A stretch of 64,000 bases of DNA from Rotaria sordida (GCA_905250005.1 CAJNOH010000675.1:1-64000), one strand, 5' to 3'. Positions 1-56,616 are shown, counted from the first letter of the stretch. Program-made: numbers and translations. The notes: a model not told the origin generated them from the letters alone.

Positions 1-2334
1 CGTTATGTGCATTCCTGGTTATTCATCGGAAGATGGAATCTGTATTGCAAGCCGAGCCAGTGAACATCGCAAAAAAAATTCTTGTTAGACTGTGGTAGAT
101 AACATTCTTCGCGATCATACTATGAACCTTATGTCTGTCTGTGTGCTTCTCGAAGATCTTCATCTTCATGTGCGCCATTATTTGAACGTGTGCGAGTATC
201 CCGATGAAAGTCAAACACAAGTAAAGTCTAGAGAATGATGCAACAGGTAAAGGCAAACTATAAATAAGATGACGATGAGCTTTAACAAACGGAAATCGTG
301 CCTTTTGATTACCCAGAAAATTTCGAAAACATCTTCAAAAGGCCGGAAAATCGTCGGAATATACATCAACAGCCAGAGATCACGATAATAGCAAAGCAGA
401 TTCTTTCAGCTATATCATACATAAAGAATATCATCATAGATTGAGTCGACATTTGACATGTTTAGTAAAACATGAATTTATACATGAAGAAGGACGTATA
501 GAACAATGTGGAAGAACTATTGTGACAATTATTACACAATATTATAAAATGATTATAGAACGATCATAAGTTTTGTGAAACATTTGTTTTTTGTTCGTTC
601 AAATAAAGTTTTCGACGCAATCCCTATTGAACTAAGAAGTGAAGTACAGCGAAGTTGTTTTTCTGGTTCTCGAAGACCTTTCTATATTGAACCGTATAAA
701 ACTACAGTTATTCACAAAAACCGACGATTATTGCTTCGATTAACCTTTTAGCTGCGGGTGAGGAGAAAGCAGCAGAAGCTTCAGTCTTGAAGTCTCACGA
801 AGTGTTGCATAGCCTAAAGCCGGAGAGATCAGTCTGCGATTGAAGCAACGATAAACTATGCGTATTCTTTACAATTAGATGGAAAGAGAAGTCAAAAATA
901 ACTAAAATTATGATTAAGACCCCTGAAAAAATTGAGCGTCGTCGAAAAATCATTTTTTCAGAAAAGGCATGGTGGGATAGCACTTTTATAATAACTCTGA
1001 CTTTAAGTAATGTCCTTCTTAAAAGCGAGATGTTTGCCATAAAAGACGATTTTCTATCTAAAAATATTGTTTTTATCGAAAAAAGTCGATTTTTCTTACG
1101 GCAGTTGTTCGGCGATGCATCTTCTATAGTATTCTATCACAGCACGAGATAAAGTCAAATTTCTTTTTTCTTGTTTAAAAATTTACTTGTCCGAAAAAAA
1201 TAATTTTCTTTGAACAAACTTTGACTTTTTTCATAAAATTTCTCAGCTTTCGTGTAAAACTATTTTTTAACTTCGTGTAAAAGCAAAAAAAATTTTCAAC
1301 TGAGTTGATTAAATGTCGTTGTAGAGATACGATAAACACCAAAAAAGGAGTATTAGAAATGCACTAAGAACAAGATATAAAGTTAAAATATCTTTGTATA
1401 TATTATTAGATATACCTCAATGTTAGCACAAAGTTTCAAGACAATATAATGCTTTATTAATGAAACGATTATACAGTTGAGTAACAGTCATAATTTTCTC
1501 ATAATTTGTTAAAATAATAGATATTAACAATCTCGAAAAATGAAATATAACTTAAAAATTTCTAGAAAACAATTATTATACCCGTTATCTAGTATACTAT
1601 TATTAGGTCGTTGGTTTCAAAGATACTTTTTTATAAACGAAATCGGTACTGTTTTTTTTCCGTATTTTCTAATCGGAATCAATGGTTTAGTTGCGAATGC
1701 ATGTACATCAGTATAATTCTTGAATCAACTAAAACTCGAAATATAGGTCTTCCTTTCAAGCACATCCGCGATTTATGTCTTTGGTAAACATGTGTATTTC
1801 AGTATGCGTATTCAATGATAAGGAAATTTAAATGTTGAAATTCTTTGTTTACTGAATCTCTTTCTTGTCTAGAAATCAGATATCGATTATTACATAAGAA
1901 AGAAGCAACTCATCATTACAAATATTTCTCTATACACTTTGAAAATTTCTTAAGCAAAAATATTTCAGAACTACATGAAATTATTATATCTTTATACTTT
2001 CACTGTTGTGTTGTAATATGGTGTGTCATTCAAGGCTCTTGCGTTCTTTCTCTAATTCACTCTCTTCAACCCTTCTGTTCTTTTTCTTCTTCTTATTTAC
2101 GACATGAATCAACCTCATTCGGTTATTATTGTAGGTTAGTCGTGCAATGTTTGACATAAACTAATACTGATGTCATTTCACAATCGAGTTGAAAATTGTT
2201 GTTTTTTTTTTTTGTCTCATATAACCCTCTCTATTATAGAGCACCTTTTTTTTTTTTAATCGAATATTAGCATACATAAAAGGACTTCTTATTCTTACAG
2301 ATTCGTCGTTTTTAATAACAAGAAAAAAAAAACC

Positions 2335-2359
2335 ATGGCCGATTCAAAAGTTACTGGTG
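2335..2359 (+). CDS. MVP: major vault protein paralog A, exon 1/14 (start ATG 2335)
   Basis: ATG GCC GAT TCA AAA GTT ACT GGT G then GTAAGA donor at 2360. Joins phase-1 to exon 2, giving [28 protein letters not shown], the conserved MVP N-terminus (human [18 protein letters not shown]). Confidence 0.8.
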
Positions 2360-2418
2360 GTAAGATACATCATTGATTATTATTTAGGTTTTTTTTAATT
2401 TTATAATTGTATATTTAG

Positions 2419-2560
2419 TATACCGAATTCCTCCTTTCTATTATTTACATGTACTTGATCAAAATACAAATGTAACTCGACTTGAAGTAGGTCCAAAAAC
2501 TTTTGTTAAACAAGATCATGAAAAAGTTATACTTGGACCTGAACGCATGTTAATTATACC
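2419..2560 (+). CDS. MVP: major vault protein paralog A, exon 2
   Basis: Acceptor AG at 2417-2418 and donor GTATGT at 2561. Encodes [47 protein letters not shown], strongly MVP-like. Confidence 0.88.
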
Positions 2561-2634
2561 GTATGTTTAAAATTAGTTTTTATAATTTTTATAGTATTTA
2601 TTCATTTTTTTTTACTATATTATAATCTATATAG

Positions 2635-2918
2635 TCCACGTCATTATGCTGTTATTGAAAATCCAGCTGTTCGAGATAAAAATGGCAAAGTTGTTATAGA
2701 TAGAAATGGTCAAGTTAAATTACTTCATTCAGATGTTGATATTCGTTTTGCACAAGAACCATTTCCACTTTATCCAGGAGAAATTCTTAAACAAGCTGTA
2801 ACACCATTAAAAGTTATTGAACCTAATTGTGCTTTACGTCTTCGTGCTGTTCTTGATTTTATTAATGATCAAGATGAACAAATTCGAGCTGGTGATGAAT
2901 TTCTTTTTCAAGGACCTG
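2635..2918 (+). CDS. MVP: major vault protein paralog A, exon 3
   Basis: Acceptor tatag|TCCACG and donor GTATAA at 2919. Encodes PRHYAVIENPAVRDKNGKVVIDRNGQVKLLHSDVDIRFAQEPFPLYPGEILKQAVTPLKVIEPNCALRLRAVLDFINDQDEQIRAGDEFLFQGPG, matching human MVP repeats 1-2. Confidence 0.88.
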
Positions 2919-2977
2919 GTATAAAATAATTCTATATGTAATAATCATTTGCAAAATCTTATCTTATTTTTTAATAG

Positions 2978-3204
2978 GAACATATTTTCCACGTAAAGAA
3001 GTTAGTGTTGAAGAACAAGTTAAAGCTGTTATTCTTAAACCTAATGAAGCTGTTCGTTTACGTGCTAAAAAAGAAATGACAGATCGAGATGGTATCGAAC
3101 GAGAAACTGGTGAAGAATGGCTTAATCGAACCGTTGGTTCCTATTTGCCATTAGCCTATGAAGAAGTTGTCTCGACTGTCACAGCTTATGTACTTACTGA
3201 TAAA
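2978..3204 (+). CDS. MVP: major vault protein paralog A, exon 4
   Basis: Encodes [75 protein letters not shown]. Phase is consistent and the donor is GTATGA at 3205. Confidence 0.88.
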
Positions 3205-3260
3205 GTATGATATTTTTTAATCTATAAGATATCATTATAATCATATATTTATGTTTTCAG

Positions 3261-3386
3261 AAAGCTCTTCATGTTCGTGCATTACGTACATTTACTGATG
3301 CATTCAAACGTAGACGTCTTCATGGAGAAGAATGGTTAGTATATGTAAATGATGCTGAAACATATATCCCTGATGTATATGAAGAA
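3261..3386 (+). CDS. MVP: major vault protein paralog A, exon 5
   Basis: Encodes KALHVRALRTFTDAFKRRRLHGEEWLVYVNDAETYIPDVYEE; the donor is GTAGGT at 3387. Confidence 0.85.
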
Positions 3387-3476
3387 GTAGGTTAACTTTT
3401 TTTGTTTGTTTGTTTGTTTGTTTGTTTTGTCGAATAGAAAGAAAAAGAAACTTAATAAAATAATATTTACACATAG

Positions 3477-3587
3477 GTTGTTGGTGTTGTAACAGTAACA
3501 GTATTAAATTCTCGTCAATATTGTGTTATTCTTGATCCAGTTGATTCCGATGGTAAACCTCAACTTGGAAGGAAAAAACTTGTTAAA
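3477..3587 (+). CDS. MVP: major vault protein paralog A, exon 6
   Basis: Encodes [37 protein letters not shown] (human [24 protein letters not shown]); the donor is GTATAA at 3588. Confidence 0.85.
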
Positions 3588-3648
3588 GTATAAATAAAAT
3601 TAGATTTTATATAAATAGAAAAAAACAAAGAAACTTTTTTTTTTTCAG

Positions 3649-3771
3649 GGTGAAAAAACATTTTTTCTTCAACCTGGTGAAAAATTAGCTAAAGGTATTC
3701 AAGATGTATATGTTCTTGAAGAAGATGAAGGTCTTATTCTTCGTTGTACAGAATCATTTAAAGAAGATGGA
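3649..3771 (+). CDS. MVP: major vault protein paralog A, exon 7
   Basis: Encodes [41 protein letters not shown] (human [26 protein letters not shown]); the donor is GTAAGT at 3772. Confidence 0.88.
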
Positions 3772-3831
3772 GTAAGTTTTATTATTTTTTTTCGAAAAAC
3801 AAAAAAAAAAAATTCTTTTCTATTCAAATAG

Positions 3832-4419
3832 AAAGTTTTACGTAATCCTGGTGATCGTTGGATGGTTCGAGGTCCAAAAGATTATATACCAGCTGTTGAA
3901 GCAGAAGTTGTTCTACGACGTAAAGCTATTCCATTAGATATTAATGAAGGAATTTATGTTCGTGATGTTAAAACTGGTAAAATACGTTCAGTTATTGGTA
4001 GTACATATTTATTAACTGAAAATGAAGAACTTTGGGAAAAAGATTTACCAACACAAGTTGAACAATTACTTGTATTAGATGCAAGACATTTTGAAGATAA
4101 ATCTAATACATCATATGTTATTCCACCAAGAGATAAATCAAAAGTTGTTAATTATCGTGTACCACATAATGCTGCTGTACAAATATATGATTTTAAATCT
4201 AAAAAATCACGTATTGTTTTTGGTCCTGAACTTGTTATACTTGGACCAGATGAACAATTTACAGTATTAAATTTATCTGGTGAAAAACCTAAAGTACCAA
4301 ATAAAATTCGAGCAATATGTCTTTTAATGGGACCAGAATTTTCAAGTGATATTGTTACTATTGAATCAAGTGATCATGCTCGTCTTTCACTTAGACTTTC
4401 ATATAATTGGCATTTTGAC
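3832..4419 (+). CDS. MVP: major vault protein paralog A, exon 8
   Basis: Contains track ORF 3862-4431, including [27 protein letters not shown]...[42 protein letters not shown]...[16 protein letters not shown]. The donor is GTAAGA at 4420. Confidence 0.9.
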
Positions 4420-4484
4420 GTAAGAAAATAAAATAAAAAGATTTTATTTGATTTTAACATATTTAATTTCTTTTTTTCTTCAAG

Positions 4485-4799
4485 GTTAAAGATCGTAATG
4501 ATATTAAAGAAGTTGCAAAACTTTTTTCTGTTCCTGATTTTATTGGAGATTTTTGTAAAGCTGTTGCTGCAAAAATTCGTGGTGCTGTTGCTGGTATTTC
4601 ATTTGATGATTTTCATAAGAATTCAGCAAAAATTATTCGTGCATCTGTATTTGGTCTTGATGAAAATAAACGTGTTAATAATCGTCTTTTATTTCCACAA
4701 AATAGTTTAGTTTTAACTTCAATTGATATTCAAAGTGTTGAACCAGTTGATCAACGAACACGTGATGCACTTCAAAAGAGTGTTCAATTAGCTATTGAA
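4485..4799 (+). CDS. MVP: major vault protein paralog A, exon 9
   Basis: Encodes [64 protein letters not shown]...[23 protein letters not shown], the shoulder domain, nearly identical to human MVP. Confidence 0.9.
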
Positions 4800-4855
4800 G
4801 TAAGAAGATCAATCAATTGATATTTTATTATAACTAATATAAATGAATTCTTTAG

Positions 4856-4887
4856 ATTACAACAAATTCTCAAGAAGCTCAAGCAAA
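4856..4887 (+). CDS. MVP: major vault protein paralog A, exon 10 (micro-exon)
   Basis: Encodes [11 protein letters not shown] (human [11 protein letters not shown]). Flanked by acceptor tttag| and donor GTAAGA at 4888. Confidence 0.8.
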
Positions 4888-4949
4888 GTAAGAAAATAAT
4901 TTGATAGAAATATAATAAAATAAATAATTATTTTTAAATATTCTTTTAG

Positions 4950-5023
4950 ACATACAGCTTCAAGAATAGAACAAGAAGCAAAAGGTCATTTAGAAAGACA
5001 AAAGATTGCTGATGAAGCTGAAG
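4950..5023 (+). CDS. MVP: major vault protein paralog A, exon 11
   Basis: Encodes (K)HTASRIEQEAKGHLERQKIADEAE (human [26 protein letters not shown]). Confidence 0.85.
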
Positions 5024-5089
5024 GTAAAATTTATTTTTCTTGTTTAAAGAATTTTTTTTATACGATGTTTTTTTTTTGTTTTTGTTTAG

Positions 5090-5224
5090 CCGAAAAGGAA
5101 CGTCGAAAGTTATTACAACTTCAAGCTGACTCATCAGCTGTTGAATCAACTGGTCAATCACGTGCTGAAGCTCAATCAAGAGCTGAAGCTGCTAAAATTG
5201 AGGGTGAATCTGCTGTTGAACAAG
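5090..5224 (+). CDS. MVP: major vault protein paralog A, exon 12
   Basis: Encodes [45 protein letters not shown], the cap-helix domain. Confidence 0.88.
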
Positions 5225-5287
5225 GTAAAAATAAATATTATTTATTATTACATCGTAAATTAATTTTGTTTTTTTTTTTCATATTAG

Positions 5288-5511
5288 CTACACTTCGTTC
5301 TAAAGCAGCAAAAATCGAAGCTGATATTGAACTTTATCGTTTAACACAAGCACGTGAATTAGAATTAAATTATTCAAAAATGACAGCTGATCTAGAAATT
5401 GATAAAGCTAAACGATTAGCTGAAGTTGAAATAAACGAATTTAAAGAACATGTTAGTGCTATTGGACCAAAAACAATTCAAGCTATTGCTACTAGTGGAC
5501 CAGATAATCAA
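5288..5511 (+). CDS. MVP: major vault protein paralog A, exon 13
   Basis: Encodes ATLRSKAAKIEADIELYRLTQARELELNYSKMTADLEIDKAKRLAEVEINEFKEHVSAIGPKTIQAIATSGPDNQ. Confidence 0.88.
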
Positions 5512-5560
5512 GTAAATTTTCTATTTTTGTTTAATAAAAAAAAACTTTCATTATTTTTAG

Positions 5561-5680
5561 GTTAAACTTCTTCAAGCTCTTGGTATTAAATCAACATTAA
5601 TTACGGATGGACGTAGTCCAATTAATCTTTTTAATACAGCTGTTGATTTAGTTGGATCAACAACTGTACAACAACATTAA
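5561..5680 (+). CDS. MVP: major vault protein paralog A, exon 14 (stop TAA 5678-5680)
   Basis: Encodes [39 protein letters not shown] (human [27 protein letters not shown]). An AATAAA lies about 150 nt downstream. Confidence 0.88.
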
Positions 5681-6915
5681 GCACTCACGTACGATAAAAC
5701 AAATTAAAATAATATTGACTTGAGTGCAGTCAGATTTTAAAAAACAAACCCGAACACTCTATTATCACATTTATTTGGTTTTATGTATTTGTATAACGTA
5801 TAGAAATTTTTTTTTTATCATAATTATCAACAATAAAATATCATAAGAATTAGTATTCTTTGACAAAAAAAAAAATAAGCAATTCAAACTGACTAAATTT
5901 GCACTTGAAAATAGCATTAGTTTCAAGGTAAAAGAAAATTATAATCGTTATTTTTAATCAAAGAAAATAAATGCATAATCATTCGAAATGACTATCTATT
6001 GACAGGTAACATAAAACATAAAAGCAGTTAGTAAACAAAAATAAGAAAAACAAATGACCTTGTATTTATAAAGGAAAAATTGAAATATTGTCAAGTGCAA
6101 AAAACACATATGTCACATAAAAATTTTATTATCCTTATTCAAGGTAAAATGCATTAACCTACGAAAAAAAAAATTTTTAGTACTATCAAGATGACATTAA
6201 ATTACGAAATAAGATATCATCCCGTCGGTTCCGATGCAAACAAATATCAAAAAACATAGAGAGAAAAAAAAAATTGTCCCAATCGAAACTAAAGATTACA
6301 GTTTAAATCCACAAAATCAAATATTCATGAATTTTTTTTACATATGATACAAATCCATTTTTCTAGACCGAAACCAAAAAAATAAATCTCTGTGCTTCAC
6401 ATCTTTAATCGTACGACTATTAAGACAAGAACCAAGTCATTTAACTCAAATCATCCTTCACAAAATTCCTACCGGTAAACTATGGCTGTTAGCAAAAACA
6501 AAAGAAACAACAAAGAATGCCTACTACACTTATGTCGTGGGAGGCAACAACGGAAACTTCAGATTTGAACTTCTATGAATCGACATGAGCAAAACAATAT
6601 AAAGTTCCTCTCAAGTTTTACACGATTATAAAAAGTATCGTTCCCAATGAAAAAGTATTGATCGTGATCCTAGAACCATCTTGCCTATATCTACCTATGA
6701 AATTTTTTTTTTTAATATTTATCATATAATTTTATCGACATCTTCATAAAACTTTTAACTTTAGAATAGAAAATTAAATTGATATAAAATTGTTCATTAT
6801 ATTTATTATTCTTACATAAGTATTTTAAAAAGAAATCAAACTAAGTGTATATAAAAATATAACGCCAACACACATATGAATAAAGGACGAATTAATTTTT
6901 CGAATGTTTTTTTAT

Positions 6916-7316
6916 CTATTCATTGTCTTCGACATGATAATTGTTTGAAGCTGTTGTTGATGATCGTAATGTTTTATTTGTATTTCCAGTTAAACCACCT
7001 AAAAGACCTTGTCCAAATCCCATAAGATTAATTGGTGTACGACCATCAGTAACTAACATTGATTGAAGACCAAGTGCTTGTAAAAGTTTAACTTGTGTAT
7101 CGGGACCAGATGTAGCAATAGCTTGTATTGTTGATGGACCAATTGATTCAACTTGTAATTTAAATTTATCTGTTTCAATTCTTGACATTTCAGATTTTTT
7201 ATTTATTTCTAATTCATTTTGTTCACGTAAAAATTTAATTTCAGCTTCACGTGCTAATTTTAAACGTGATAATTCAGCTTCAGCTTCAATTCGTGTTGCT
7301 TCAGATTTAAGACGAG
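6916..7316 (-). CDS. MVP: major vault protein paralog B, exon 9 (stop TAG 6918-6916)
   Basis: Encodes [108 protein letters not shown]...HVEDNE*, track ORF 6916-7326. Confidence 0.88.
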
Positions 7317-7364
7317 CTATATTCAAAAGAAAGAAAAAATTTATGTTTTTTTTTTAGACATTTA

Positions 7365-7367
7365 ATA

Positions 7368-7390
<23 letters not shown>
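7365..7390. repeat. (AT)n microsatellite followed by T-run, in MVP-B intron 8
   Basis: atatatatatatatatatatatatat followed by 21 T. Confidence 0.9.
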
Positions 7391-7398
<8 letters not shown>

Positions 7399-7405
7399 TT
7401 TGTAC

Positions 7406-7646
7406 CTTGATCAACAGCAGCTTCTCCTTCAATTCGAGCTGATTCAGCACGACTTTGTGCTTCAGCTTTAGCTTGACCTGTTGATTCAACAGCAGCTGAT
7501 AAAGCTTGTAAGTCAAGAAGTTGTCTTCGAACTTCTTCAGCTTCAGCTTCATCTTTAATACGTTGACGTTCTAATAAACCTTTAGCTTCTTGTTCACGAC
7601 GTGAAGCTTCATGTTTAGCTGCAGCTTCTTGTGAATTTGTTGTTAT
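7406..7646 (-). CDS. MVP: major vault protein paralog B, exon 8
   Basis: Encodes [80 protein letters not shown]. The downstream intron contains a (TA)n run. Confidence 0.85.
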
Positions 7647-7711
7647 CTAAAGAATTCATTCGTGTTTTTTTATTTATTTATTTATAATCAATTGAATATT
7701 TATTATCTTAC

Positions 7712-8040
7712 TTCAATAGCTAATTGAACACTCTTTTGAAGTGCATCACGTGTACGTTGATCAACTGGTTCAACACTTTGAATATCAATTGATGTAATAA
7801 CGAGATTATTTTGTGGAAAAACAAATTGATCTCGTATACGTTGATTAGCATCGAGACCAAATACAGATGCACGAATAATTTGAGCGGAATTCTTATGAAA
7901 ATCATCAAATTGTGTTCCAGCAACAGCACCACGAACACGTGATGCAATAGCTTTAGCTGCATCACCAACAAAATCAGGAACTGAAAAAAGTTTTGCAGCT
8001 TCTTTTTCATCTTTTATATCATTAACTTCGAAATGCCAAT
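7712..8040 (-). CDS. MVP: major vault protein paralog B, exon 7
   Basis: Encodes [110 protein letters not shown]. Confidence 0.88.
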
Positions 8041-8102
8041 CTAATTAAATAAATGAAAAAAGGACATAAAAAAAATTTTTAAAAATTCAAAAATAAATTT
8101 AC

Positions 8103-8695
8103 TATATGAAAGTTGAAGTGAAAGACGAGCATGATCAGCTGTTTCAATAACAATAACATCAGTAAAAAAATCTGGACCAAGAAGTAAACAAAGTGTTTGA
8201 ATTTGATTTGGTTTTTTTGGTACAGTACCACTCAATGAAAGTAATGTAAAATGTTCATCAGGACCAAGCATAACAAGTTCAGGACCAAAAATAATACGTG
8301 CTTTTTTAGATTTAAAATCATATATTTGTACACAAGCATTATGTGGTACACGATAAGTAATTAATTTTGATTTATCACGTTTTGTTGTACTTGATTTTGA
8401 ACTTGTTGCTTGTGTAGTTGTTGTTGTTTGTTGTTGTTGTTGAGATTTATCTGATACTTGATTACGTGTTGGAACATTTCGTTCAGCTAATGGATCACGT
8501 GTAAGTAAATCTTCAACTTGTTTAGGTAATTCTTTTTGCCAAAGTTCTTCATCTTGTGTTAACATATAAGTTTCACCAATAACAGCTCGTACACGACCTG
8601 TTTTTATATCACGTACATAAATACCTTCATTTTCATCTAAAGGCATTGCTTTTCGACGTGTAACAACTTCAACTTGTGTTGGAGGAATATATTCA
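8103..8695 (-). CDS. MVP: major vault protein paralog B, exon 6 (contains Q/T/S-rich insertion)
   Basis: Encodes [57 protein letters not shown]...[76 protein letters not shown]...[12 protein letters not shown], track ORF 8041-8763. Confidence 0.88.
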
Positions 8696-8753
8696 CTATA
8701 ATAAAAATAAATAAATAAATAAAAATTCTTGATATTAAAAATCAATCTCTTAC

Positions 8754-8938
8754 GTTGGACCACGAATCATCCATCGATCACCAGGATTTCGATCTGTACC
8801 AGCTTGTTCATCAGTAAATGCTTCAATACATTTAAGAATAACACCTTCATCTTCACCTAATATATAAACATCTTGAATACCATTTTCAAGTTTTTCACCT
8901 GGTTGAAGAAAAAATGATTTTTCACCAACAATAAGTTT
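8754..8938 (-). CDS. MVP: major vault protein paralog B, exon 5
   Basis: Encodes [62 protein letters not shown]; the donor is GTAAGA. Confidence 0.85.
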
Positions 8939-9182
8939 CTAAAAACAAACAAAAAAAACGATATAATGACTATTGCTAATCAATCAAAGATTGTTTCTTA
9001 TTGATTTAGAGATATAAATCAATCGGTTAAGCCACTGTGGTTGTCGTACACCACAAAAATAGATATTTGATTTTTCTCTTTTTAAATTCTCGATGTCTCA
9101 ATTTAATCATCATCTCTTTCTGTAATAACTCAATATTTCTTTTAGATCATATTTCATAAAATAAAATTTAATTATGACAAAC

Positions 9183-9449
9183 CTTTTTTCCTAATTGTGG
9201 TTTTCCATTAGCAACTGGATCAAGAATAACACAATATTGACGTGAATTAAGTGTTATTACATCAACAACAGCAACTAATTGTTCATAAACACTAAGTGTA
9301 TGTGTTTCAGTATCATTAAGTGTAACAAGCCATTCTTCACCATTCATACGTTTTTTACCAAAATCATCTGTAAAAGTTTTTAATGCACGTAAATGAAGAG
9401 CTTTTTTATCTGTTAAAACATGTGCATTTTCAACAGTGACAACTGTTTC
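9183..9449 (-). CDS. MVP: major vault protein paralog B, exon 4
   Basis: Encodes [89 protein letters not shown]. This stretch is split by two extra introns in paralog A. Confidence 0.85.
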
Positions 9450-9518
9450 CTAGAAAATATTTCGATTAATAAAATAAAATAAAATATCTCGAAAAAAAAA
9501 AATAATAATTTAATTTAC

Positions 9519-9827
9519 ATATGCAAGTGGTAAATAAGCACCAGTTTTTTTCACTAACCATTCTTCACCAGTAACACGTCGTTGACCTGTACGATCAATA
9601 ATTTCTTTTTTTGCACATAAACGAATAGCTTGATTAGAACCAATAACAGTTGCACGAATTTGTTCTTCTACACTAACTTCTTTTCGTGGAATATATGTTG
9701 CTGGTCCTTCAAATAACCATTCATCACCAGCACGACGTTGTTCTTTTGTTATTTCATCATCAAAATCAAGTACAGCTTTTAAACGTAATGCTGAATTAGC
9801 TGGTACAACTTTTAAAGGGGTAACTGG
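9519..9827 (-). CDS. MVP: major vault protein paralog B, exon 3
   Basis: Encodes [103 protein letters not shown]. Matches track ORF 9510-9839. Confidence 0.88.
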
Positions 9828-9896
9828 CTGAAAAATCAAAAATAATAATAATAATAATATGAGAAAATATCGACTTGTTTTTTTTTTGTTTCATAC

Positions 9897-10065
9897 TTGA
9901 CGAAGAATTTCTCCAGGATAAAGTGGAAATGGTGATTGATCAGGTTGTGCAAGACGAATATCTAAATCAGCATGAACAAGTTTAGCTTGACCATTTACAT
10001 CATATTGAACTTCTCCAGCTTCATTACGTACAACAGGTGATTCAACAACACAATAATGACGTGGC
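9897..10065 (-). CDS. MVP: major vault protein paralog B, exon 2
   Basis: Encodes PRHYCVVESPVVRNEAGEVQYDVNGQAKLVHADLDIRLAQPDQSPFPLYPGEILRQ. Flanked by acceptor ctag| and donor GTATGA. Confidence 0.85.
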
Positions 10066-10130
10066 CTAGATAAATAATTTATAATTTCTTTTTTGTTTTG
10101 TTTTTTTTCTTTTAAAACAAATTTACGTAC

Positions 10131-10324
10131 GGTACTGTAATCATTTTTTCTGGTCCAATTGTAACTGTTTCATTGTCTTGTTTAATAAATGTTTTTGGAC
10201 CAACTTCAAGTCGTGTAACATTTGTATTTTGATCCAAAACATGTATATAATGATAAGGTGGTATACGATACAATGGACCTGCACCACTTTTATTGGCAGA
10301 TGTAGTCGAAGTTGATGGATTCAT
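10131..10324 (-). CDS. MVP: major vault protein paralog B, exon 1/9 (start ATG 10324-10322)
   Basis: Encodes [65 protein letters not shown]. The donor GTACGT is at 10130-10125 on the minus strand. Confidence 0.88.
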
Positions 10325-12380
10325 ATCGTTTGTTAAAATAATAATCTAGATGAATATGTAAAAATGAATGTCTACTTATAAACAAGAAAAAAAGAAGTGA
10401 AAAAAGAACCCGGAGACACGCACAAGATATTACATAGGTCACAGTGAAATATATTTTTACAAAGCATTGTGCAAGTTTGCCCCTTAAAAAAAAAAAAAGA
10501 GAAAAACAAAATCTATATTTTTCTCTCTTTCTGTCGTCAATGCTGTTATTGCACAACGTTTAGTTTTACTTTCACGTTAATAATAACAACGACAGAATAC
10601 ACAGACTCGTAAATATTTTATGAATCATACGACGAAAAAAACATCAATTAAAAAATGAATAATTCTGATGTTTAAATATAACACAATATCGATGAAATAT
10701 GCAAAAGGTATTAATCTTCAATGTATATATGTCTATTGATATGACAAAATTGACCTAGTTAAATGTAGAAATTTTAATAATTAAATTTTTGTATAATAAA
10801 TATCAAGTATTAGTTATTATCTTGAGAATTCCAATATTAAATTTTCTTTTTATATACTGAGAGTGCAAAACAGTACTTTATAGTTCTGTAATATTTCATC
10901 ATTCTTCAATTAATATTATAATATTAAGAGCATTACAAAAGTACTAAGATGGACAAAAAATACAAGAACAAGTTCATCAAATATTCAAAGTAGCCATCTT
11001 AATTGTTTACATAGAATTGCATCCTATTATCGATAGTATTTCTTCATTCTGTTAGAATTTATGAAATTCTTTACAGAATGATGTAATTATTCGCAATCAC
11101 TTAGATTTTACTTGATCAAGTCCAATAACCAAAAATCACATGCTATCAGATTCGAAGAATTAAATGTTAATAACATAAGTATCAAACAAAGATCTTAACA
11201 TCTTAAATTCATTGCCAACAGGCTACAAAAAGTTACTGATGTAATATTTGTGACCAACAGTTTGATCCGATTCTATATAATGAATTAAAACAAGACCAAC
11301 GGACGTAGTCAATATAAGCCAAAGAAAATAATACACAAAAGACGACATCATTTAATAAATAGAGATGAACTAGACTCCTAAGTCTAAAAAGAATTCGTCC
11401 CCACATGCTAAGCTATTACAGTTTTATTAAATTATTTTATCACTGACAAAATATTTGTGCAAAAATCAAAGTAGAGAATTTCAACCTGAAAATTTCTTCA
11501 TGAAATATTGAATATCTAAAAACAATCCAAAGTTACAAGGAAAGGTAAAAGAACCCAGCATTTTCAGGATTCGATATTTCACAGGAACAATACATTCCTT
11601 TAGACTGAAATTTTCAAGTCATTGCAAGACTCACATTGAACGATATTTTTTCAGTTGAAATTCACACTATGATTTTTCACAATTACCTTGGCAAAGATAA
11701 AAAATTTACTAAAAACTATACAAGCTAAGGAAGGTCACTGCATCAGGACGAACTACTATAGGCTTCGAATAGTCTCACCGGTGTTTACTTATTCGCAAAA
11801 TATCAGTTCGATCGACATGTCACACATAAAGACAATATAGTCGAATGCGACTGAAATTCATTATGATTTCTTCTACGGAAGTCAAAGATTTAGAAACAGC
11901 AGATATTGTATAAGATCATCTTCTGATATTTTTCGATCTAATTATTTATTTCAATTGATTGTTGCGCAAGACTCTATTCTTTTTTTTTTTCGTGGTTATT
12001 TGTAAAGATCTCTAGATTTTTATTTTCGAACATATAAGTTGACAAAAAAAAAAAAAGAAAAAATGAAAGAACCACACCGACAATTACACAAAAAAAAAGA
12101 AAACTAGCGTGATTGAACCAATAGAATAACCACACACAAATAAACAAAAGAAAAAAAAAAAAAAAAGAATGTCTAAATTAATTTTTCATAAACATCTTTT
12201 TAATCTGTTTTATTTTCTCTAAATACACAAGCTAGACGTTTTTTTTTTTTTTAGAAATAAACAAAAAGACAAAATTTCATTATGCGTTTATTCAATATGA
12301 ATTACCGCGATAACGTTAAGAATTTAGGTTTTTTTTTTTTTTTTTTTTTTTGTAAAAGAAAAAAGCAACAATAATGCATT

Positions 12381-12521
12381 TTATGCAGCTGGTGGTGCTG
12401 ATGGTTGTACCATTGGCAAATCACCATGAACACGAAATCGATATACACATGTATAATTTGGATTACCCCAATTTGATGTTACTCGAAGTTCAACATATTC
12501 AACAGTTGGTACATTAACAAG
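12381..12521 (-). CDS. SUN-domain protein, exon 7 (stop TAA 12383-12381)
   Basis: Encodes [46 protein letters not shown] (human ELRIFSNWGHPEYTCLYRFRVHGEP). An AATAAA on the minus strand lies about 100 nt downstream. Confidence 0.85.
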
Positions 12522-12572
12522 CTAAATATTAAAATTCATTTTAATATAAAAAAAAAAATTACAAAAACAAAC

Positions 12573-12668
12573 TTGAGGTTTAAATCGTTGAAGTGATGGA
12601 CCATTCTCTGCATCATAATAATATCGACCAAGAACCATACCTTCTTTATCATGTTTATCTTTTAAAGC
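12573..12668 (-). CDS. SUN-domain protein, exon 6
   Basis: Encodes ALKDKHDKEGMVLGRYYYDAENGPSLQRFKPQ. Confidence 0.75.
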
Positions 12669-12757
12669 CTAAAACAAAAAACCAATAAATTGATTTTTTC
12701 GAGAAATACAGAAAGTTTAATGTCAATATCTTTTATGAAATAATATTTTTTACTTAC

Positions 12758-12925
12758 ATAAACAGTAAAATTATTCGGTGCACTATTAATATGTCCAACA
12801 ATTGAAATAGTTTTTGATAAATGTTCAAGTACAAATTCAGTTGGTTTAACAGGTACAGCTAATTTAATAATAACACTTCCTTGATCACCTTTAAATGGAA
12901 AACATTGACCTGGCATTCGACCAGA
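12758..12925 (-). CDS. SUN-domain protein, exon 5
   Basis: Encodes SGRMPGQCFPFKGDQGSVIIKLAVPVKPTEFVLEHLSKTISIVGHINSAPNNFTVY, the SUN-domain core (human PGNCWAFKGSQGYLVVRLS...FTLEHIPKTLSPTGNISSAPKDFAVY). Confidence 0.85.
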
Positions 12926-12987
12926 CTACAAAATAATTAATATATTTCAATTAAAATTTTAAATATATATATAAATCAAAAACAAAC

Positions 12988-13106
12988 TTTTATCATTATA
13001 TCCGGTTGTTTAGACATATGTACTATAGGAATACCAAGAAATTTAACAACATTCTGGCGTGGTTCATCAGTATATTCCGTACATCTTGTATCAACAATTT
13101 TTCCAC
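12988..13106 (-). CDS. SUN-domain protein, exon 4
   Basis: Encodes GGKIVDTRCTEYTDEPRQNVVKFLGIPIVHMSKQPDIMIK (human GSILSTRCSETYETKTALLSLFGIPLWYFSQSPRVVIQ). Confidence 0.78.
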
Positions 13107-13156
13107 CTAAAAGAAATTTTATATATTTTTTTTTCTTGTGTTTCTATTTAATTTAC

Positions 13157-13229
13157 CATTAGCTTCAAGTGCATAATCAGCTTGACCAGTTTCATCAGCG
13201 GCATATTCATCAAGTAATTGTCGAATAAG
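13157..13229 (-). CDS. SUN-domain protein, exon 3
   Basis: Encodes LIRQLLDEYAADETGQADYALEANG, the start of the SUN domain (human SUN1 ...DYALESAGG). Confidence 0.75.
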
Positions 13230-13289
13230 CTAAAAGGAATAGTTTTTTGTTTTTTTTTTTTTTGACTTTCTTAATAATCATCTACTTAC

Positions 13290-13720
13290 AGCATCTAATT
13301 CTCGTTCTTGTGCAGGTTTTAATGCATGTCGACTACCAAGATATTTTTCTTTTTCATGTTTAAATTCATCCATTAAATTTTGAACTTTTTGTAAACTAGC
13401 ATCACAATATTCTTTAGCATTGTCTTTTGTTGTTTCAACAACATTATTAACACGTCCTTTAACTTGATTAACTTGTCGATGAAATGTTTTTTTTATTGTA
13501 TAATAAATATCATCAAGAAAATTCATTATCCAATCTTTTATATCAATTAACCAATGATAAAATCGTTTAAGATAATAAGAAATACGATTATATGTATTTT
13601 CACGAATAAAATTCGTTATATTTCCCATTTGTTTATTTCTATATTCTTGAAAATCTTGACAATATTCATAAGCTTTTGATTCTGGATAATGTTCAAATGA
13701 TTTACATGCCAAATAAGGAA
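13290..13720 (-). CDS. SUN-domain protein, exon 2 (coiled-coil region)
   Basis: Acceptor ttttatag| and donor GTAAGT at 13289. Encodes FPYLACKSFEHYPESKAYEY...KHEKEKYLGSRHALKPAQERELDA, phase-consistent with exon 1. Confidence 0.7.
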
Positions 13721-13989
13721 CTATAAAATAATTAAAAAAAAAAAAACAAAGAATATATTGTAGTATCCATCGGATCGAGGATAGAGGCAGTCGTCTCTCT
13801 TGCTCGCAAAATTTTCAGAGCGGGATTGAGACTACATTAACAGTTATCATTTCGTGAAGTTAAAACCGAAGAATTCAAATCAATTTTAATCTTCTGTAGG
13901 ACTAGCATTTTATTTTTATTCATTAAGATTGAGCTACTCTAAGGAAGTGACGCTTATACCCACCCTCCTCGCAGGTTTTTTTTCGCACA

Positions 13990-14425
13990 AATATTTTTTT
14001 GTCTTAGCAAAAAAAATCAATATTTTCGAGAACGAACATTTATATAGGAAAGTACTATTTAGAGGTTTCTGTAGTCGAAAGTTAGTTTTTCATGTAAAAT
14101 GAGTATGATATTCAGAATCAGCATAAAAAATTACACTAGATAGTGTATTTTTCATTGTAAAATATTTTCCATGAAAATTTGACCCGTAGGGAACCAAGGG
14201 GGAAAAATCTCATGGATAAAAGGTTGAGGGGGAGTAGGGAGTAGATTCCCATGGAAAATATTTTAGAATGAAAAGTAGACTGTCTAGTGTAATTTTTCAT
14301 GCTGATTCTGAATATCATACTCATTTCACATGAAAAACCAACCTTTGACTACAGAAACCTCTAAATAGTAGTTTCCTATATAACTGTTCGTTCTCTAAAA
14401 TATTGATTTTTTTTTGTAAGACTAA
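13990..14425. repeat. foldback (long inverted-repeat) element, ~435 bp, inside SUN gene intron 1
   Basis: The left arm 13990-14200 is the near-perfect reverse complement of the right arm 14215-14425. For example ttcatgtaaaatgagtatgatattcagaatcagcat pairs with atgctgattctgaatatcatactcatttcacatgaa. Confidence 0.8.
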
Positions 14426-14959
14426 AACTGTCCAAGATCTGATTGGGTGATTTTACATCTTCATACTACTCACAACCAAAAAATATTGAAACGAAAAGAA
14501 ACCTTTCGGGGGGATATAGCCTATGGAAACAGCGCTACTTCCTTTAATTTTTCGAAGTAAAATGAAGATATAATGCGATTGAGCGCGCGAGACGGCCACT
14601 CCGCTTCACGAAAATGCTTTTGGTGCGATGTACATCTCTGATATGTAGGTTTATAAAGGAAGACTAAGTTCTATTGCACACCGTAGACGCCGCCACCTAT
14701 TGATATCTCAGAACTTGGTAATACTTATGAAGTCTTCCTTTACATAAACACGCCTTCGGAATGTTCTAGAATAGTTTGACTTGTATTGTTTATATGTCAC
14801 TCAATGCCTTTTTCTGATGTCAAGGAAGGCTAATACTTAATGTTTTTCAGAATGTACCTAATGATTATTGAGCTTTCGTCTACGATGAATAGATGAGTAG
14901 CAAAATTTTACATTTAGTATATTTTTCTTCGAAAGAAAAAAAGAAAAGAGAATACTTAC

Positions 14960-15605
14960 AAGCATAAAGACCAAGAAGAAAAAGAAGTGGAATTAGTAAC
15001 CACCATGGTAAACTCATAAGATTATTCCATAGAAATTTGAATAGATTAATTGGTATATAAAGAAGATTTTTCATAAAACTTATTAATGTATTATCTTTAT
15101 CTTCATGAAATTTTTCATGTTTTTTTCTTGTTTCTTTTTCTTTATTATATTCTTCTTCTTCTTCTTCTTCGTCTTCTTCTTGTTCATTTTGTTGATCTTG
15201 ACTTTTTCGTTCTTTTCTTGTTAATTTATGTTGTTCAATTTGTTCATTATCATTATCACGTGGTGTTGAATGAACAGGTGCAGCACCAGTACGTCGACGA
15301 AGATTATAACCTGTTGTTTGACCATTTGTTGATGATTGAGATGATGAACGAGAAAATCCTCTACTACGATGAGATGTTGGTGAATTAAGAAGTGTTTCTG
15401 TTCCTTGTTGTTGAGTATTTTGATGCATTAAACGATCACGTATAGCTGAATATCCATTAGCTAATTGTGAACGAACATTTGACATAAATCGTGTTGGTGA
15501 TGAAAATACCGAATTTGTTGATGATCCATATGAACGATAATCACCATGTAAATCACGACGAGCCATTACTGGAACAGCATATGCACCATTTTCCGTCACA
15601 GGCAT
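14960..15605 (-). CDS. SUN-domain nuclear envelope protein, exon 1/7 (N-terminal nucleoplasmic region + TM)
   Basis: ATG at 15605-15603 gives MPVTENGAYAVPVMARRDLHG, then an acidic EEDEEEEEEEY tract and a transmembrane helix LPWWLLIPLLFLLGLYA. The GTAAGT donor is at 14959. Lies within track ORF 14880-15683; the start choice is uncertain. Confidence 0.65.
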
Positions 15606-16973
15606 ATAGGAAACACTAGAATTAAAAAAAAATTCAATAAAATTAATTACAAAACGGATGTTTATCGATATATATATATCCATACGCTATTCGAATCTAA
15701 AGTTATTTAAACTTCTATATTTTTAATTAATAGTTTTCTAGATGATTTCATATTTCGATCTTTTAGCAAACAATTTGTACGACATTGAGATTCTCATTTG
15801 TTTATGATAAATTACATCATTTGAATATTTAATATTTATTTTGGTAAGTTCAATTCTGTCAATCGTATCGTAATGGTACCTTGTTGCTTGAAGGTTAAAC
15901 CATTGTATAAAACATATCTCACGTCATGCCACTTTACATTCAAACAAAAAAAAACCATTAACAAACACTTATTGATTGTATCAAATAGCTTCGAGCAATG
16001 TACGTTTAAACTTAACAAAAAAAGAAATCGAACTTTCTTTGAGGTATTTTATTGGAATCTTGCCAAGTTTTCTTGATATTCAACTAAAAGTTGAGATTGT
16101 AAAAACAACAAGCAATTATTATCGTACTATACTTCAAACCAATCGAATTGATGATAAGAGATAACTTATATCTATTTGTGTATTACGTCATATACAATAG
16201 CCAAACAAAAAAACCAGACCTTTTCAATTATTCTAATTTCATAATTCTTTCCACTAGGTTAGTCCATCAGTTTACGCCTCAGAATACATTTGTTTACTCA
16301 TTCTCAAGTATCGGCTTTTTTCTTCTATGAATAATAATTCAAATCAAACAAAGTGAACACTCTCAAGTAAATTTTATACAAGACTGAATATATTAATGAT
16401 AATTTATATTCAAACTGTACAAATAGTTTTATTTGTTTTTTTTGTCAATAAAACACTAACCTGTGAGCATAAGTATAAGTTGTTGGTGGAAGTCCACTAA
16501 AAGAAAAATTGTTTCTAATACTTCGTTTTTTTCTTTTATAATTAAAATAATTACTCTGTAGGTGATTTTGTATTTTGAAGTACATCATAAACACTTCTAC
16601 TTGTTGTAGTATTTGATCCCATTCGTCGTTTTGTTATTGTATCTGTACGTACTTCAGTTTCAATGAACATTGGTCGACGAGTTGTTGTTACTGACGAATT
16701 AGAACCTGATGTTGTTGGTTTATTTGTTTCAATAATATCATCATCAATCAGTGTATCTGTCATAATTAATCTTCTATTTTTCTTTTCTATATAATATAGA
16801 ATAGATCTGAAATTAAAAACAGAAAAAAAAAAAGGATAAACTTCTCCTGTTTATCGTGACCTATGAAACAAAGTGAACAAAGTTCGACCGATTCGATCAT
16901 ATCGATAAATTAGAAGCAGACGAAAAAGAAAAGAAAAGAAAAGAAAAAAATTCTATCGCATGTGTATACATGA

Positions 16974-17683
16974 TTAACGTTCGAAAGAAAGAAAAGAAGA
17001 CGATGAAGTGATAAATCTATCATTTAATATATCAAGTAAAGTTAATATGATTCGTGATATAGATGAAAAATATTTTAACCATATATTTCTACATTCTATT
17101 TGCATTTGATTTCGTTGATAAATAGAAATATTTCTTAAATAATATGGTAAAAGACTTAATGATATATTTGAATAAATAATAATAATTGATTTTGACCAAT
17201 TAATTATTTCACTAAATGGAAGTATAATTAATTCATTATCATTTGTTGTTATAACAGGTATACAACCATATTGTAATGATTCAAGAAAACGATATGAATA
17301 TAAACGACGTCCACTAGGTACAAGACAAAAATATGATTGACGAAGAAGTTCAATATATTCATTTTGATCATAAGAATTATTATTATTATTATCAGTATAT
17401 TTTATAATAATATCATGATTATTATTTAAATGACGAAAAAATGTACGATGATGTTGAACATCTTCATAACTTTTACCTTTAAATGAAAGTAGAATTTTAC
17501 GTGAAGAAAAAAATTTATTTGTTAAATTTGATGGATAATCAATATGAAATAATGGAAATGTTATATCCGATAAACAATTATAATTATTATAAGTAAAACT
17601 AGTTGAAGCAAGAATATATTGTGATGGTAATATAAAATCTAATGTACGTCGATAAGAAGGCCAAGTTCCTAGAAGATAATGTA
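16974..17683 (-). CDS. exostosin-like glycosyltransferase (GT47 domain), exon 2 (stop TAA 16976-16974)
   Basis: Acceptor tccttag|. Encodes VHYLLGTWPSYRRTLDF...RKILLSFKGKSYEDV...YFCLVPSGRRLYSYRFLESLQYGCIPVITTNDNELIILPFSEIINWSKSIII, closely resembling the EXT1/2 exostosin domain ([26 protein letters not shown]...LPFSEVINW). Confidence 0.7.
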
Positions 17684-17858
17684 CTAAGGATATTTTTTTA
17701 CAATATCTTTGTCTCATCTACTATTACGAACAAAAAAAAGCTCATTATCTAACAGACTTTCGTTCAGAGGGATCGGATGACATGATTTATGATTATGTCT
17801 AAGGAGTTTCGCATGATCTATCTCAATAAAATGAAAGAACAAAAAAAAAGAAATCTAC

Positions 17859-18357
17859 CTGTATAATGATTAAATATCAAATGAATTTTATTTGGATCTG
17901 ACCATTCATGAAAAAATTTAAAACGTTGTTCAATAAAATATGTATAATAACCATTTTTTGATCGACGATCTCGATCAAGTGTATCAACAGGTGCTATATG
18001 TATACAAGCTAATGATGAATCATTTGTATAATAAGATGAATTTCGAATTATATCAAGAATAATTGAAAAAATAGGTGAACGTATATAAGTTATATTTGGA
18101 TATTCAATATTTTTATCAATATGAATAGAAAAATATTTAATATTATTTGGACATTTTAATTTCTGTGTACAATTTAATATTGTATTCGAAATATGAAATG
18201 AAGGTAATAAAATAGATTTTTCATTAGAAGACGAATCAGAAAAAAGTTGAAAAATAAGTACAATTTGTATAAAACATATAAGAATACAAATAATAGTAAG
18301 AAAAATAAAACGTTGTGATATGTTAGAAAATGATTTAATCATTGTGCAATCTATCAT
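17859..18357 (-). CDS. exostosin-like glycosyltransferase (GT47 domain), exon 1
   Basis: ATG at 18357. N-terminal type-II membrane anchor (FIFLTIICILICFIQIVLIF), then ...ACIHIAPVDTLDRD...YFIEQRFKFFHEWSDPNKIHLIFNHYT. The donor is GTAGAT at 17858. Confidence 0.7.
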
Positions 18358-18802
18358 TAATTATCTATTAACCACATAAAAATGACAGACAAAGCCGATG
18401 CCACTATCAACCAATACATAGTAACATCTTTGTCCTCTATCATTTTAATGCATTTATGCAAATATAGAGATTTTTACTGATAACTAGCGACCTCAATGAA
18501 TAGAAAATAGTGTTATTTTTTTGTTTAGTAAAATGAAAATCATGTTATCTAATTTATTATTAAGAATGAAATTTAGAAAATTTAAAATCAAAACAAATAA
18601 TTGATAAGCATCTCATGGGTTCGATGCAATAAAAAAAAATTTTCTTTTTTTCAAGTATCGACTTTGTAGTTATTTTTGTATCATAGGGTTGAGTCATTCA
18701 TATGAAAAATAATCTTAACTATCAATTGAATAAATTATTTAAATGAAATATTGAAAGAAAAAAACGAAAGTTTTTTCTCTTTTTTTTTTTTTTTCTATTA
18801 TA
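18358..18802. promoter_or_regulatory. putative bidirectional promoter between divergent EXT-like (-) and KDM2-like (+) genes
   Basis: Only about 445 bp separates the two start codons, ATG 18357 on - and ATG 18803 on +. An AT-rich T-tract immediately precedes the KDM2 ATG. Confidence 0.35.
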
Positions 18803-55791: not shown

Positions 55792-56616
55792 ATGATGTTT
55801 ATCTTATTCATTTTCTTTCTTATCCATAAAAGTCAATCATTAGAATGGAATTGTACTGAAACTAAACATTATCTTTTTTTGAATGATCAAATATATGAAC
55901 AGTGTACAATTACAATTGAATATATATCATTAGAACAACAACAACAACAACAACAATATAAACAAATATGTATAACACATAGTTTATCAATAAAAACTCT
56001 TCCACCAATATCATTTTTATCAAATTATACAATGCATACATTTAAAATAAATTCATGTCAATTATTAACATTAAATCAATTACCATTTTTATTACCATCA
56101 TCAGTTGAAAATCTTGATTTAAGTTATAATTTATTATCAACATTTACATTATCATTTCCATTACCATCATATCTTAAATATTTACGTCTTGATCATAATC
56201 CAAATTTAATTGATATTAATTTTGGTTATAATCATATACAACAACGTTTAATTGGTCTTAGTCTTCGTCATAATAAAAATATCAAATTAACATCTTTACC
56301 AGTATATTTAAAACAACTTGATTTAACTAATTGTAATGTATTACAATCATCAATATTATCATTATTAAAAACATTAACAAAATTAACTCATTTATCATTA
56401 GCTAATAATCAATTAACACAATTACCTATAATTGATAAAAGAATACAACTTGAATATCTTAATTTATCAAATAATAATTTGACATTTATTGAAAATGAAT
56501 GGTTACATAAATCATTAAAAATACTCGATCTTAAATATAATCAATTAGAATCACTTAAATTTTTTAATCAAATATTAAAAATAAATCAAACATTAAAACA
56601 AAATAATCATAATCAA
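55792..56616 (+). CDS. leucine-rich-repeat transmembrane receptor-like protein, exon 1 (signal peptide + LRRs)
   Basis: Track ORF. Signal peptide MMFILFIFFLIHKSQS, then repeated LxxLxLSxNxL units (LDLSYNLLSTF, LRLDHNPNL, LDLTNCNV, LSLANNQLTQLP, LNLSNNNLTFI, LDLKYNQLESL). The donor is GTAAGT at 56617. Confidence 0.8.

Follow-up and report, generated by a model that had tools for sequence, protein, structure and literature searches.

A conserved convergent pair of diverged major vault protein genes in bdelloid rotifers, predicted from the genome of Rotaria sordida

The function of vaults is still unclear, and most work on these particles assumes a shell built from one protein. Sets of several major vault protein (MVP) paralogues are already known from Dictyostelium, the kinetoplastids, and the salmon louse, and the pair described here overturns nothing in that regard. 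In Trypanosoma brucei, three divergent paralogues (MVP1, MVP2, and MVP3) have been shown experimentally to occupy one vault shell (PMC12547018), and in Dictyostelium the loss of either MVP paralogue alters the shape of the vault, the classic evidence for a mixed shell as it is cited in PMC12547018. In a 64,000-nucleotide stretch of the genome of the bdelloid rotifer Rotaria sordida (GCA_905250005.1, CAJNOH010000675.1:1-64000; the whole of this stretch is referred to as the window), two MVP genes, designated MVP-A and MVP-B, lie tail-to-tail between positions 2,335 and 10,324. These are very probably two functional genes that descend from an old inverted tandem duplication and have been retained in convergent orientation under equal purifying selection; they are predicted to be co-expressed and may, at near-even odds, form mixed vault shells.

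It should be noted that bdelloid MVP genes are already annotated in public assemblies. Within the searchable literature, the sole paper found to link MVP to bdelloids is a transcriptome study of Adineta vaga, which makes no mention of the pair. What is new is that a convergent A/B pair is described across the clade, together with its minimum age and the history of its introns. An initial annotation of the window, made from the sequence alone, had remarked that many animal genomes keep a single MVP gene. That generality matches PMC11219742 and is not the rule in rotifers, among which at least three MVP lineages were found in bdelloids and at least four tandem copies on a monogonont-like contig.

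The window is AT-rich (27.5% G+C) and its genes carry short GT-AG introns. Gene models were built by two routes, the first an assembly of exons by hand from three-frame open segments and the second a protein-to-genome spliced dynamic-programming aligner guided by R. socialis P0001 for MVP-A and R. sordida P0121 for MVP-B. The exon coordinates obtained by the two routes are identical for both genes. MVP-A lies on the plus strand (2335..5680; ATG at 2335, TAA at 5678-5680) and encodes 841 amino acids in 14 exons, of which exons 1-7 occupy 2335-2359, 2419-2560, 2635-2918, 2978-3204, 3261-3386, 3477-3587, and 3649-3771, and exons 8-14 occupy 3832-4419, 4485-4799, 4856-4887, 4950-5023, 5090-5224, 5288-5511, and 5561-5680. 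MVP-B lies on the minus strand (6916..10324; ATG at 10324, stop codon at 6918-6916) and encodes 895 amino acids in nine exons (10324-10131, 10065-9897, 9827-9519, 9449-9183, 8938-8754, 8695-8103, 8040-7712, 7646-7406, and 7316-6916). All introns of both genes are GT-AG, with lengths of 49-90 nt in MVP-A and 58-89 nt in MVP-B, plus a single MVP-B intron of 244 nt, and neither gene contains an internal stop or a frameshift. The stop codons face each other across a convergent 3' intergenic spacer of 1,235 bp (5681..6915), which the initial annotation had put at 1.2 kb; its counts of 14 and nine exons were likewise reproduced by the orthologue-guided spliced alignment.

The predicted products are, on present models, intact full-length major vault proteins. 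The Pfam families Vault, Vault_2, Vault_3, Vault_4, and MVP_shoulder are all matched in both proteins far above their gathering cut-offs, with Vault scores of 207.6 bits for A and 213.6 bits for B against a cut-off of 27. The shoulder domain (PF11978) is covered over the full length of its profile (positions 1-118) by residues 513-631 of A (162.6 bits) and by residues 548-666 of B (176.2 bits). In a search of the Protein Data Bank (PDB) run with MVP-A, residues 8-835 match positions 6-851 in MVP chains of solved structure (7pkz, 4hl8/4v60, and 11dr; E=0, ~1120 bits). Through the A-B alignment, MVP-B is collinear with MVP-A up to the residues PIN, at B residue 859. The two proteins share 65% identity (549/843) and 81% similarity by BLASTP, in keeping with an earlier estimate of about 60-65%. 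That both copies are intact and full-length had also been proposed, and the agreement of the two model routes, the complete Pfam set, and the lack of stops or frameshifts bear this out. The sequence motifs quoted at that time as diagnostic for both copies stand where the motif is present in both; two of them are B versions from which A differs, and one is a blend of A and B.

The pair recurs in all the bdelloids covered here, in the same convergent orientation. A further R. sordida contig (CAJNOL010001210.1), 98.2-98.6% identical to the window at the nucleotide level over 20 kb, is annotated with convergent genes of 895 and 841 amino acids, and the A and B counterparts on this independent contig are also intact. 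The contig stops at window position 30, and its differences from the window amount to ~1.5%, as for a different assembly, haplotype, or isolate of R. sordida or for a very close relative. MVP-B and the annotated R. sordida P0121 (UniProt 'Major vault protein') share 99% identity, and MVP-A is 90% identical to the R. socialis protein. R. socialis carries a convergent pair of 841/892 amino acids, A. vaga a convergent A/B pair on chromosome CP075497.1, and the early-branching bdelloid Didymodactylos carnosus a convergent pair of 861 and 864 amino acids. A TPT/EamA transporter gene beside A and a Sad1_UNC (SUN-domain) gene beside B enclose the pair in both R. socialis and A. vaga. The R. sordida contig has Sad1_UNC and Exostosin genes on the B side and ends ~2.3 kb past the start of A; the D. 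carnosus pair has no called neighbour genes. On the B side of the window itself, a Sad1_UNC gene and an Exostosin GT47 gene occupy 11900-18400 on the minus strand. In R. sordida and R. socialis, as in A. vaga, Sad1_UNC adjoins B, and Exostosin lies beyond it in two Rotaria loci. The public annotation of the A. vaga A orthologue is a 648-residue 'partial' protein; because the locus (~8.19 Mb) encodes an intact 14-exon protein of 839 amino acids, the truncation is an annotation error. A pseudogenised A in A. vaga was considered and rejected, as the apparent stop is the natural stop codon, located two codons before the end of the guide protein.

R. sordida also contains a second collinear locus, in the order Sad1_UNC, B2 (884 amino acids), A2 (839 amino acids, 14 exons), and TPT, where B2 is 90% identical to B and A2 is 88% identical to A. 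Judged by its collinearity and divergence, this locus is most simply read as an ohnologue left by the bdelloid tetraploidy. A further MVP of R. sordida, its third (P0152, of the B clade), stands alone at an unrelated locus, and no A-like remnant was found beside it. Bdelloids hold at least three MVP lineages, and full-length diverged MVP paralogues are kept under selection, the pair having been found in four species of bdelloid and, in R. sordida, at two loci. Outside the bdelloids, a monogonont-like environmental contig of 25% G+C (JGI 3300071516, Ga0620986_00212) carries at least four head-to-tail MVP copies between 2962 and 18600, 77-99% identical to one another. The full copy is intronless, and two other copies are apparently interrupted once or twice by short gaps of ~60 nt. 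Among rotifers, therefore, bdelloids are not alone in having amplified MVP.

A neighbour-joining (NJ) tree of 50 sequences (840 columns, Kimura distances, 200 bootstraps) recovers a rotifer clade with 100% bootstrap support. Within it, a monogonont-like clade (Brachionus and other sequences), a bdelloid A clade, and a bdelloid B clade each receive 100%, and A and B group as sisters with 67%. D. carnosus falls in both the A and the B clade, which places the duplication before crown Bdelloidea. This phylogeny gives substance to the initial suggestion of an old duplication. Both MVP-A and MVP-B are under purifying selection, with a ratio of nonsynonymous to synonymous substitution (dN/dS) of about 0.12: between R. 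sordida and R. socialis it is 0.115 for A and 0.115 for B, and between the two R. sordida loci it is 0.19-0.20. Across the crown bdelloids, the cross-species identity matrices of A and B run in parallel. The proportion of synonymous differences (pS) is 0.37 for A versus B and 0.36 for orthologues, and synonymous divergence (dS) is unusable for dating because synonymous sites are saturated or compositionally constrained.

The two genes differ most conspicuously in their introns, which were mapped on one protein alignment for A and B of the four bdelloids together with Brachionus, Lottia, and Nematostella; the Brachionus MVP has a single intron and is uninformative. Seven of the 13 MVP-A introns match Lottia and/or Nematostella in position and phase, namely GP|GTYF (phase 1), TDK|KALH, YEE|VVGV, LVK|GEK, DG|KVLR, QEAQA|K (phase 2), and DNQ|VKLL. 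Only ILRQ|PVTP, among the eight introns of MVP-B, is clearly ancestral. The initial annotation had noted that TDK|KALH, YEE|VVGV, and the intron closing a 32-nt mini-exon are present in A and absent from B, which the map reproduces; these lie at Lottia/Nematostella positions and therefore were lost in B. The mini-exon of A (4856..4887, plus strand) sits between a bdelloid-specific intron and the ancestral phase-2 intron lost in B.

The intron after ILRQ (B intron 2, phase 0; 9828..9896, minus strand) had likewise been seen correctly as present in B and absent from A of the window. Its position and phase are matched in Lottia, in each of the four B genes, and in the A gene of D. carnosus, so that it was retained by B from the ancestor and lost from A of Rotaria and Adineta. 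Differential loss and gain of introns, as first proposed, holds for the losses in B and for candidate gains elsewhere, with ILRQ|PVTP reassigned from gain to ancestral retention. Further B-only introns had been overlooked (LAY|ETVV, RGP|T, and a shifted SY|N). The lineage-specific positions of B are LAY|ETVV, GKK|KLIV (four codons away from LVK|GEK, an ancestral site), RGP|T (phase 2), and SY|N (phase 1), and those of A are TG|V (phase 1), HFD|VKD, and AE|AEK (phase 1); all are candidate gains or slides.

One position ties the two genes together. The phase 0 intron QLAIE|ITTN, which is A intron 9 (4800..4855, plus strand) and its counterpart B intron 7 (7647..7711, minus strand), was found in each of the eight bdelloid genes mapped, A and B alike, and has no equivalent in Lottia, Nematostella, or Brachionus, which marks it as a shared derived position. 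Two further introns, IIP|PRHY (phase 2; 2561-2634 in A and 10066-10130 in B) and VEQ|A (phase 1; 5225-5287 and 7317-7405), are common to A and B in Rotaria and Adineta and absent from both D. carnosus genes, patterns that could reflect a double loss, gains in parallel, or conversion between the two genes of the inverted pair. Near LSYN|WHF (8041-8102 in B and 4420-4484 in A; alignment columns 591-596), an intron occupies four positions/phases within five codons: phase 2 in the W codon in Lottia and Nematostella, phase 2 in the N codon in both D. carnosus genes, phase 1 in the N codon in Rotaria B, and phase 0 after HFD in Rotaria and Adineta A, with no intron in A. vaga B. This region looks like intron sliding, or recurrent loss and gain. 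Taken over all positions, A appears to have kept most ancestral introns and B to have lost most, through differential loss and gain after the duplication. The pair thereby offers a small case of post-duplication intron turnover, with seven ancestral introns kept in one copy versus one in the other, one shared-derived position, and several that seemingly slid.

Conserved elements occur upstream of both genes. Two C/EBP-like sites (TTGYRCAAT), TTGCACAAT at 10466-10474 and TTGTGCAAT at 10548-10556, lie on the minus strand 140-230 nt upstream of the B ATG (10466..10556), within blocks kept in the B upstream regions of all four loci compared (the window, R. socialis, the second R. sordida locus, and A. 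vaga). An alignment of the four A upstream regions reveals conserved blocks TTGCGTTC…TTCTCTAATTCACTCTCT at ~2036-2069 (region 2036..2184, plus strand) and, on the same strand, one-mismatch C/EBP-like sites TCGTGCAAT at 2140-2148 and TTTCACAAT at 2176-2184. The one-mismatch versions are found in three of the four A upstream regions, and A. vaga has a perfect ATTGCACAAT at the TTTCACAAT site. The motif shows no enrichment over the whole window (6 found against 4.7 expected), and the evidence for these sites is therefore confined to their conservation. A C/EBP gene, FUN_002683, is induced by radiation in A. vaga (PMC10809525), which makes the conserved sites a candidate route of co-regulation, and we infer that they may be regulatory in function.

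Expression of an A-type gene is suggested by two ~2.75-kb environmental contigs (JGI 3300002343 and 3300002341), which carry an unbroken open reading frame (ORF) of 841 codons, 87% identical to A without gaps, with ~100 nt of 5' flank and ~130 nt of 3' flank. Alignments of these contigs to the window by blastn are interrupted at the borders of the modelled exons, and the contigs probably represent the spliced mRNA of an A orthologue. A polypyrimidine-CAG acceptor-like site at 2290-2303, ~32 nt 5' of the A ATG, is kept in four loci, and a donor-like GTTAGT lies near 2132. An intron in the 5' untranslated region (UTR) of A was entertained on this account and is unsupported, as the transcript-like contig is collinear through the acceptor region.

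In A. vaga, five MVP genes are over-expressed after radiation or after rehydration following desiccation (Moris et al. 2024, PMC10809525). Two of its genes with consecutive numbers, FUN_011957 and FUN_011958, are both full-length MVPs with mean counts of 8758 and 8625, log2 fold changes of 2.55 and 2.48 at 2.5 h after X-rays, and E-values to Lottia of 2.5e-274 and 1.9e-288, respectively (PMC10809525, Table S5). This difference in E-value runs the way one would predict if one gene were A-type and the other B-type. The A. vaga locus tag I4U23_029823, sought as FUN_029823 in the expression tables, has no entry there. PARP4-like genes with a VIT domain are also listed for A. vaga (PMC10809525); the window itself contains no gene for the vault partners TEP1 and vPARP.

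The history favoured by this analysis begins with a single ancient inverted tandem duplication in the rotifer lineage, before the living bdelloid families split. The duplication would precede the tetraploidy, which would have copied the whole flank-B-A-flank locus, and both genes have since been held in convergent orientation under equal purifying selection. Their intron sets drifted apart as A kept most of the ancestral introns, B lost most, and each acquired a few lineage-specific positions. The two genes would be driven by separate promoters, one at either outer end of the pair, and A and B would be expressed at approximately equal levels and induced together after DNA-damaging stress. By analogy with Dictyostelium and T. 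brucei, the A and B isoforms may co-assemble into the same vault shells. Mixed A/B shells are judged the most likely outcome, with a probability that approaches an even chance, because of the ~1:1 abundance of the putative A. vaga pair and the precedents in Dictyostelium and T. brucei.

Several observations weigh against parts of this history. For the order of the duplication and the bdelloid-monogonont split, informative site patterns number six for A with B, seven for A with the monogononts, and two for B with the monogononts. In a home-made maximum likelihood (ML) comparison of three topologies, A with B is better by 3.5 log-likelihood units (lnL) under a family-specific matrix, and Poisson+F favours A with the monogononts by 0.7 lnL. 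The duplication still predates the divergence of the living bdelloid families, and a placement on either side of the bdelloid-monogonont split fits the NJ, site, and ML results. As to co-expression, no exact k-mer of 8 nt or more recurs in every one of the eight upstream regions of A and B, and FUN_011957 and FUN_011958 could be the other collinear pair, their adjacency being read from consecutive identifiers alone. As to mixed shells, polyribosome templating, the idea presented in PMC11219742 by which one mRNA yields one particle, would favour homomeric A-vaults and B-vaults.

This last point leads to the best-surviving alternative, in which both genes are functional and would form separate homomeric vaults, or serve different tissues or conditions through subfunctionalisation; such an arrangement is possible, at a probability well below even. 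In addition to co-translational templating on polyribosomes (PMC11219742), which would tend to one-mRNA particles, the divergence of the two proteins speaks for it. At 65% identity, A and B are as far apart as either is from mollusc or cnidarian MVPs. The most diverged stretch between them is the second half of the cap-helix, the region of lateral contacts, at 45% identity. The C-terminus is short in A, and B has a longer Gly-rich tail as well as a Q/T/S-rich low-complexity insertion (8385..8470, minus strand) that appears as a BLASTP gap and is missing from A. Conversely, the consecutively numbered A. vaga MVP pair is near-equal in both abundance and induction, which looks stoichiometric, and the far more diverged paralogues of T. 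brucei do co-assemble. A more ambitious proposal extends the favoured history in the opposite direction, such that bdelloid vaults would be obligate A/B hetero-oligomers, co-induced by DNA damage possibly via the C/EBP-like sites and aiding tolerance of radiation and desiccation. It is rather doubtful, slightly more so than separate vaults, and if true, an obligate A/B shell would be the first metazoan two-subunit vault.

It is improbable that MVP-A has moved to a function outside the vault (e.g., a secreted or structural role, as for MVP in salmon-louse cement) with B remaining the canonical shell protein. The stem branch of A on the NJ tree is about twice as long as that of B (0.127 vs 0.066), and B is nearer to other metazoan MVPs (70-72% identity) than is A (65-67%), both of which would suit such a shift. 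Set against these, every MVP domain is kept in A, its residues 8-835 align to solved vault shells, and within the crown bdelloids A evolves no faster than B, given a dN/dS of 0.115 for each and the parallel identity matrices.

Bdelloids are well known for foreign genes, and the identity between A and B is no higher than that between A and the outgroups; both points would suit a horizontal acquisition of one copy or, in the case of the latter, a relic of a much older, pre-rotifer duplication. Either origin is very unlikely here. A, B, and the monogonont MVPs fall in one clade with 100% bootstrap, ten alignment columns unite all three rotifer groups against the outgroups, the derived intron position QLAIE|ITTN is common to A and B and absent from outgroups, and the two genes lie side by side in all bdelloids covered. 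Bdelloid MVPs are the nearest relatives of both A and B, and the monogonont clade comes next, which is not the pattern of a horizontal acquisition. Finally, that one copy is a pseudogene or an artefact of assembly or annotation is scarcely credible, as the 648-residue 'partial' A. vaga annotation is offset by the intact 14-exon, 839-residue gene at that locus, by intact genes in the window and on the independent R. sordida contig, and by a dN/dS of ~0.12.

The remaining features of the window bear less directly on the pair. The spacer contains both 3' UTRs and polyadenylation-signal-like hexamers. Its conservation with R. socialis is confined to ~150 nt by the A stop and ~75 nt by the B stop, parts that look like 3' UTR sequence. 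Among the bdelloids compared, the A/B spacer is shortest in A. vaga (770 nt) and longest in D. carnosus (4,072 nt), and comparison with these two species and with the second R. sordida locus revealed no conserved spacer element. Rfam returned no matches, including to the Vault RNA family, in the whole window at the gathering threshold and none at E<=1 in 5600-7000. On these results, and with no tRNA found by ARAGORN, a non-coding RNA in the spacer or window, such as a linked vault RNA, was considered and rejected. A tblastn search for further MVP fragments in the window returned MVP-A and MVP-B alone. The R. socialis and A. vaga counterparts of the 244-nt intron 4 of MVP-B (8939-9182) measure 51 and 69 nt, respectively, and a scan of the 244-nt intron found no tRNA and no meaningful repeat. 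A (TA)n microsatellite lies at 7365-7395, within MVP-B intron 8. Elsewhere on the plus strand, two long unbroken ORFs at 55792-56658 and 57848-59224 (288 and 458 amino acids) match leucine-rich repeats and are probably pieces of one or two leucine-rich-repeat genes.

The bdelloids emerge as a metazoan clade that keeps two diverged shell subunits side by side throughout its history. The pair may serve as a natural system for asking whether animal vaults can be heteromeric and whether vaults have a role in tolerance of DNA damage. Relative to the MVP of rat and human (PDB 4V60, 7PKR), the order of N-terminal repeats, shoulder, cap-helix, and C-terminal region is the same. The bdelloids differ in having two diverged isoforms instead of one gene, with a shortened C-terminus in A and an insertion and Gly-rich tail in B. 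The closest parallel within the rotifers is the monogonont-like array, which also represents local MVP amplification; its copies are recent direct repeats with few or no introns and group with Brachionus, being neither A-type nor B-type.

Dictyostelium discoideum likewise has two full-length MVP paralogues, MvpA and MvpB, which arose in an amoebozoan by an independent duplication. To our knowledge, these do not form a conserved convergent pair. The two Dictyostelium paralogues are described as highly similar in PMC12547018, unlike the bdelloid proteins. The salmon louse is a metazoan with several MVP paralogues of full length (LsMVP1-3), two of them on one chromosome (PMC11219742). There, LsMvp2 and LsMvp3 are recent and highly similar with three exons per gene, whereas the bdelloid pair is ancient, 65% identical, and divided into 14 and nine exons. 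In T. brucei, the genes are dispersed, with MVP1 on chromosome 5 and MVP2 and MVP3 at separate chromosome-10 loci according to their gene IDs, and the paralogues are more divergent, at 52-58% similarity; co-assembly is demonstrated in that system and proposed by analogy for the bdelloids. What T. brucei and the bdelloids have in common is a diverged set of full-length MVPs kept clade-wide, in which one paralogue resembles the 'standard' MVPs more than it does its own sister.

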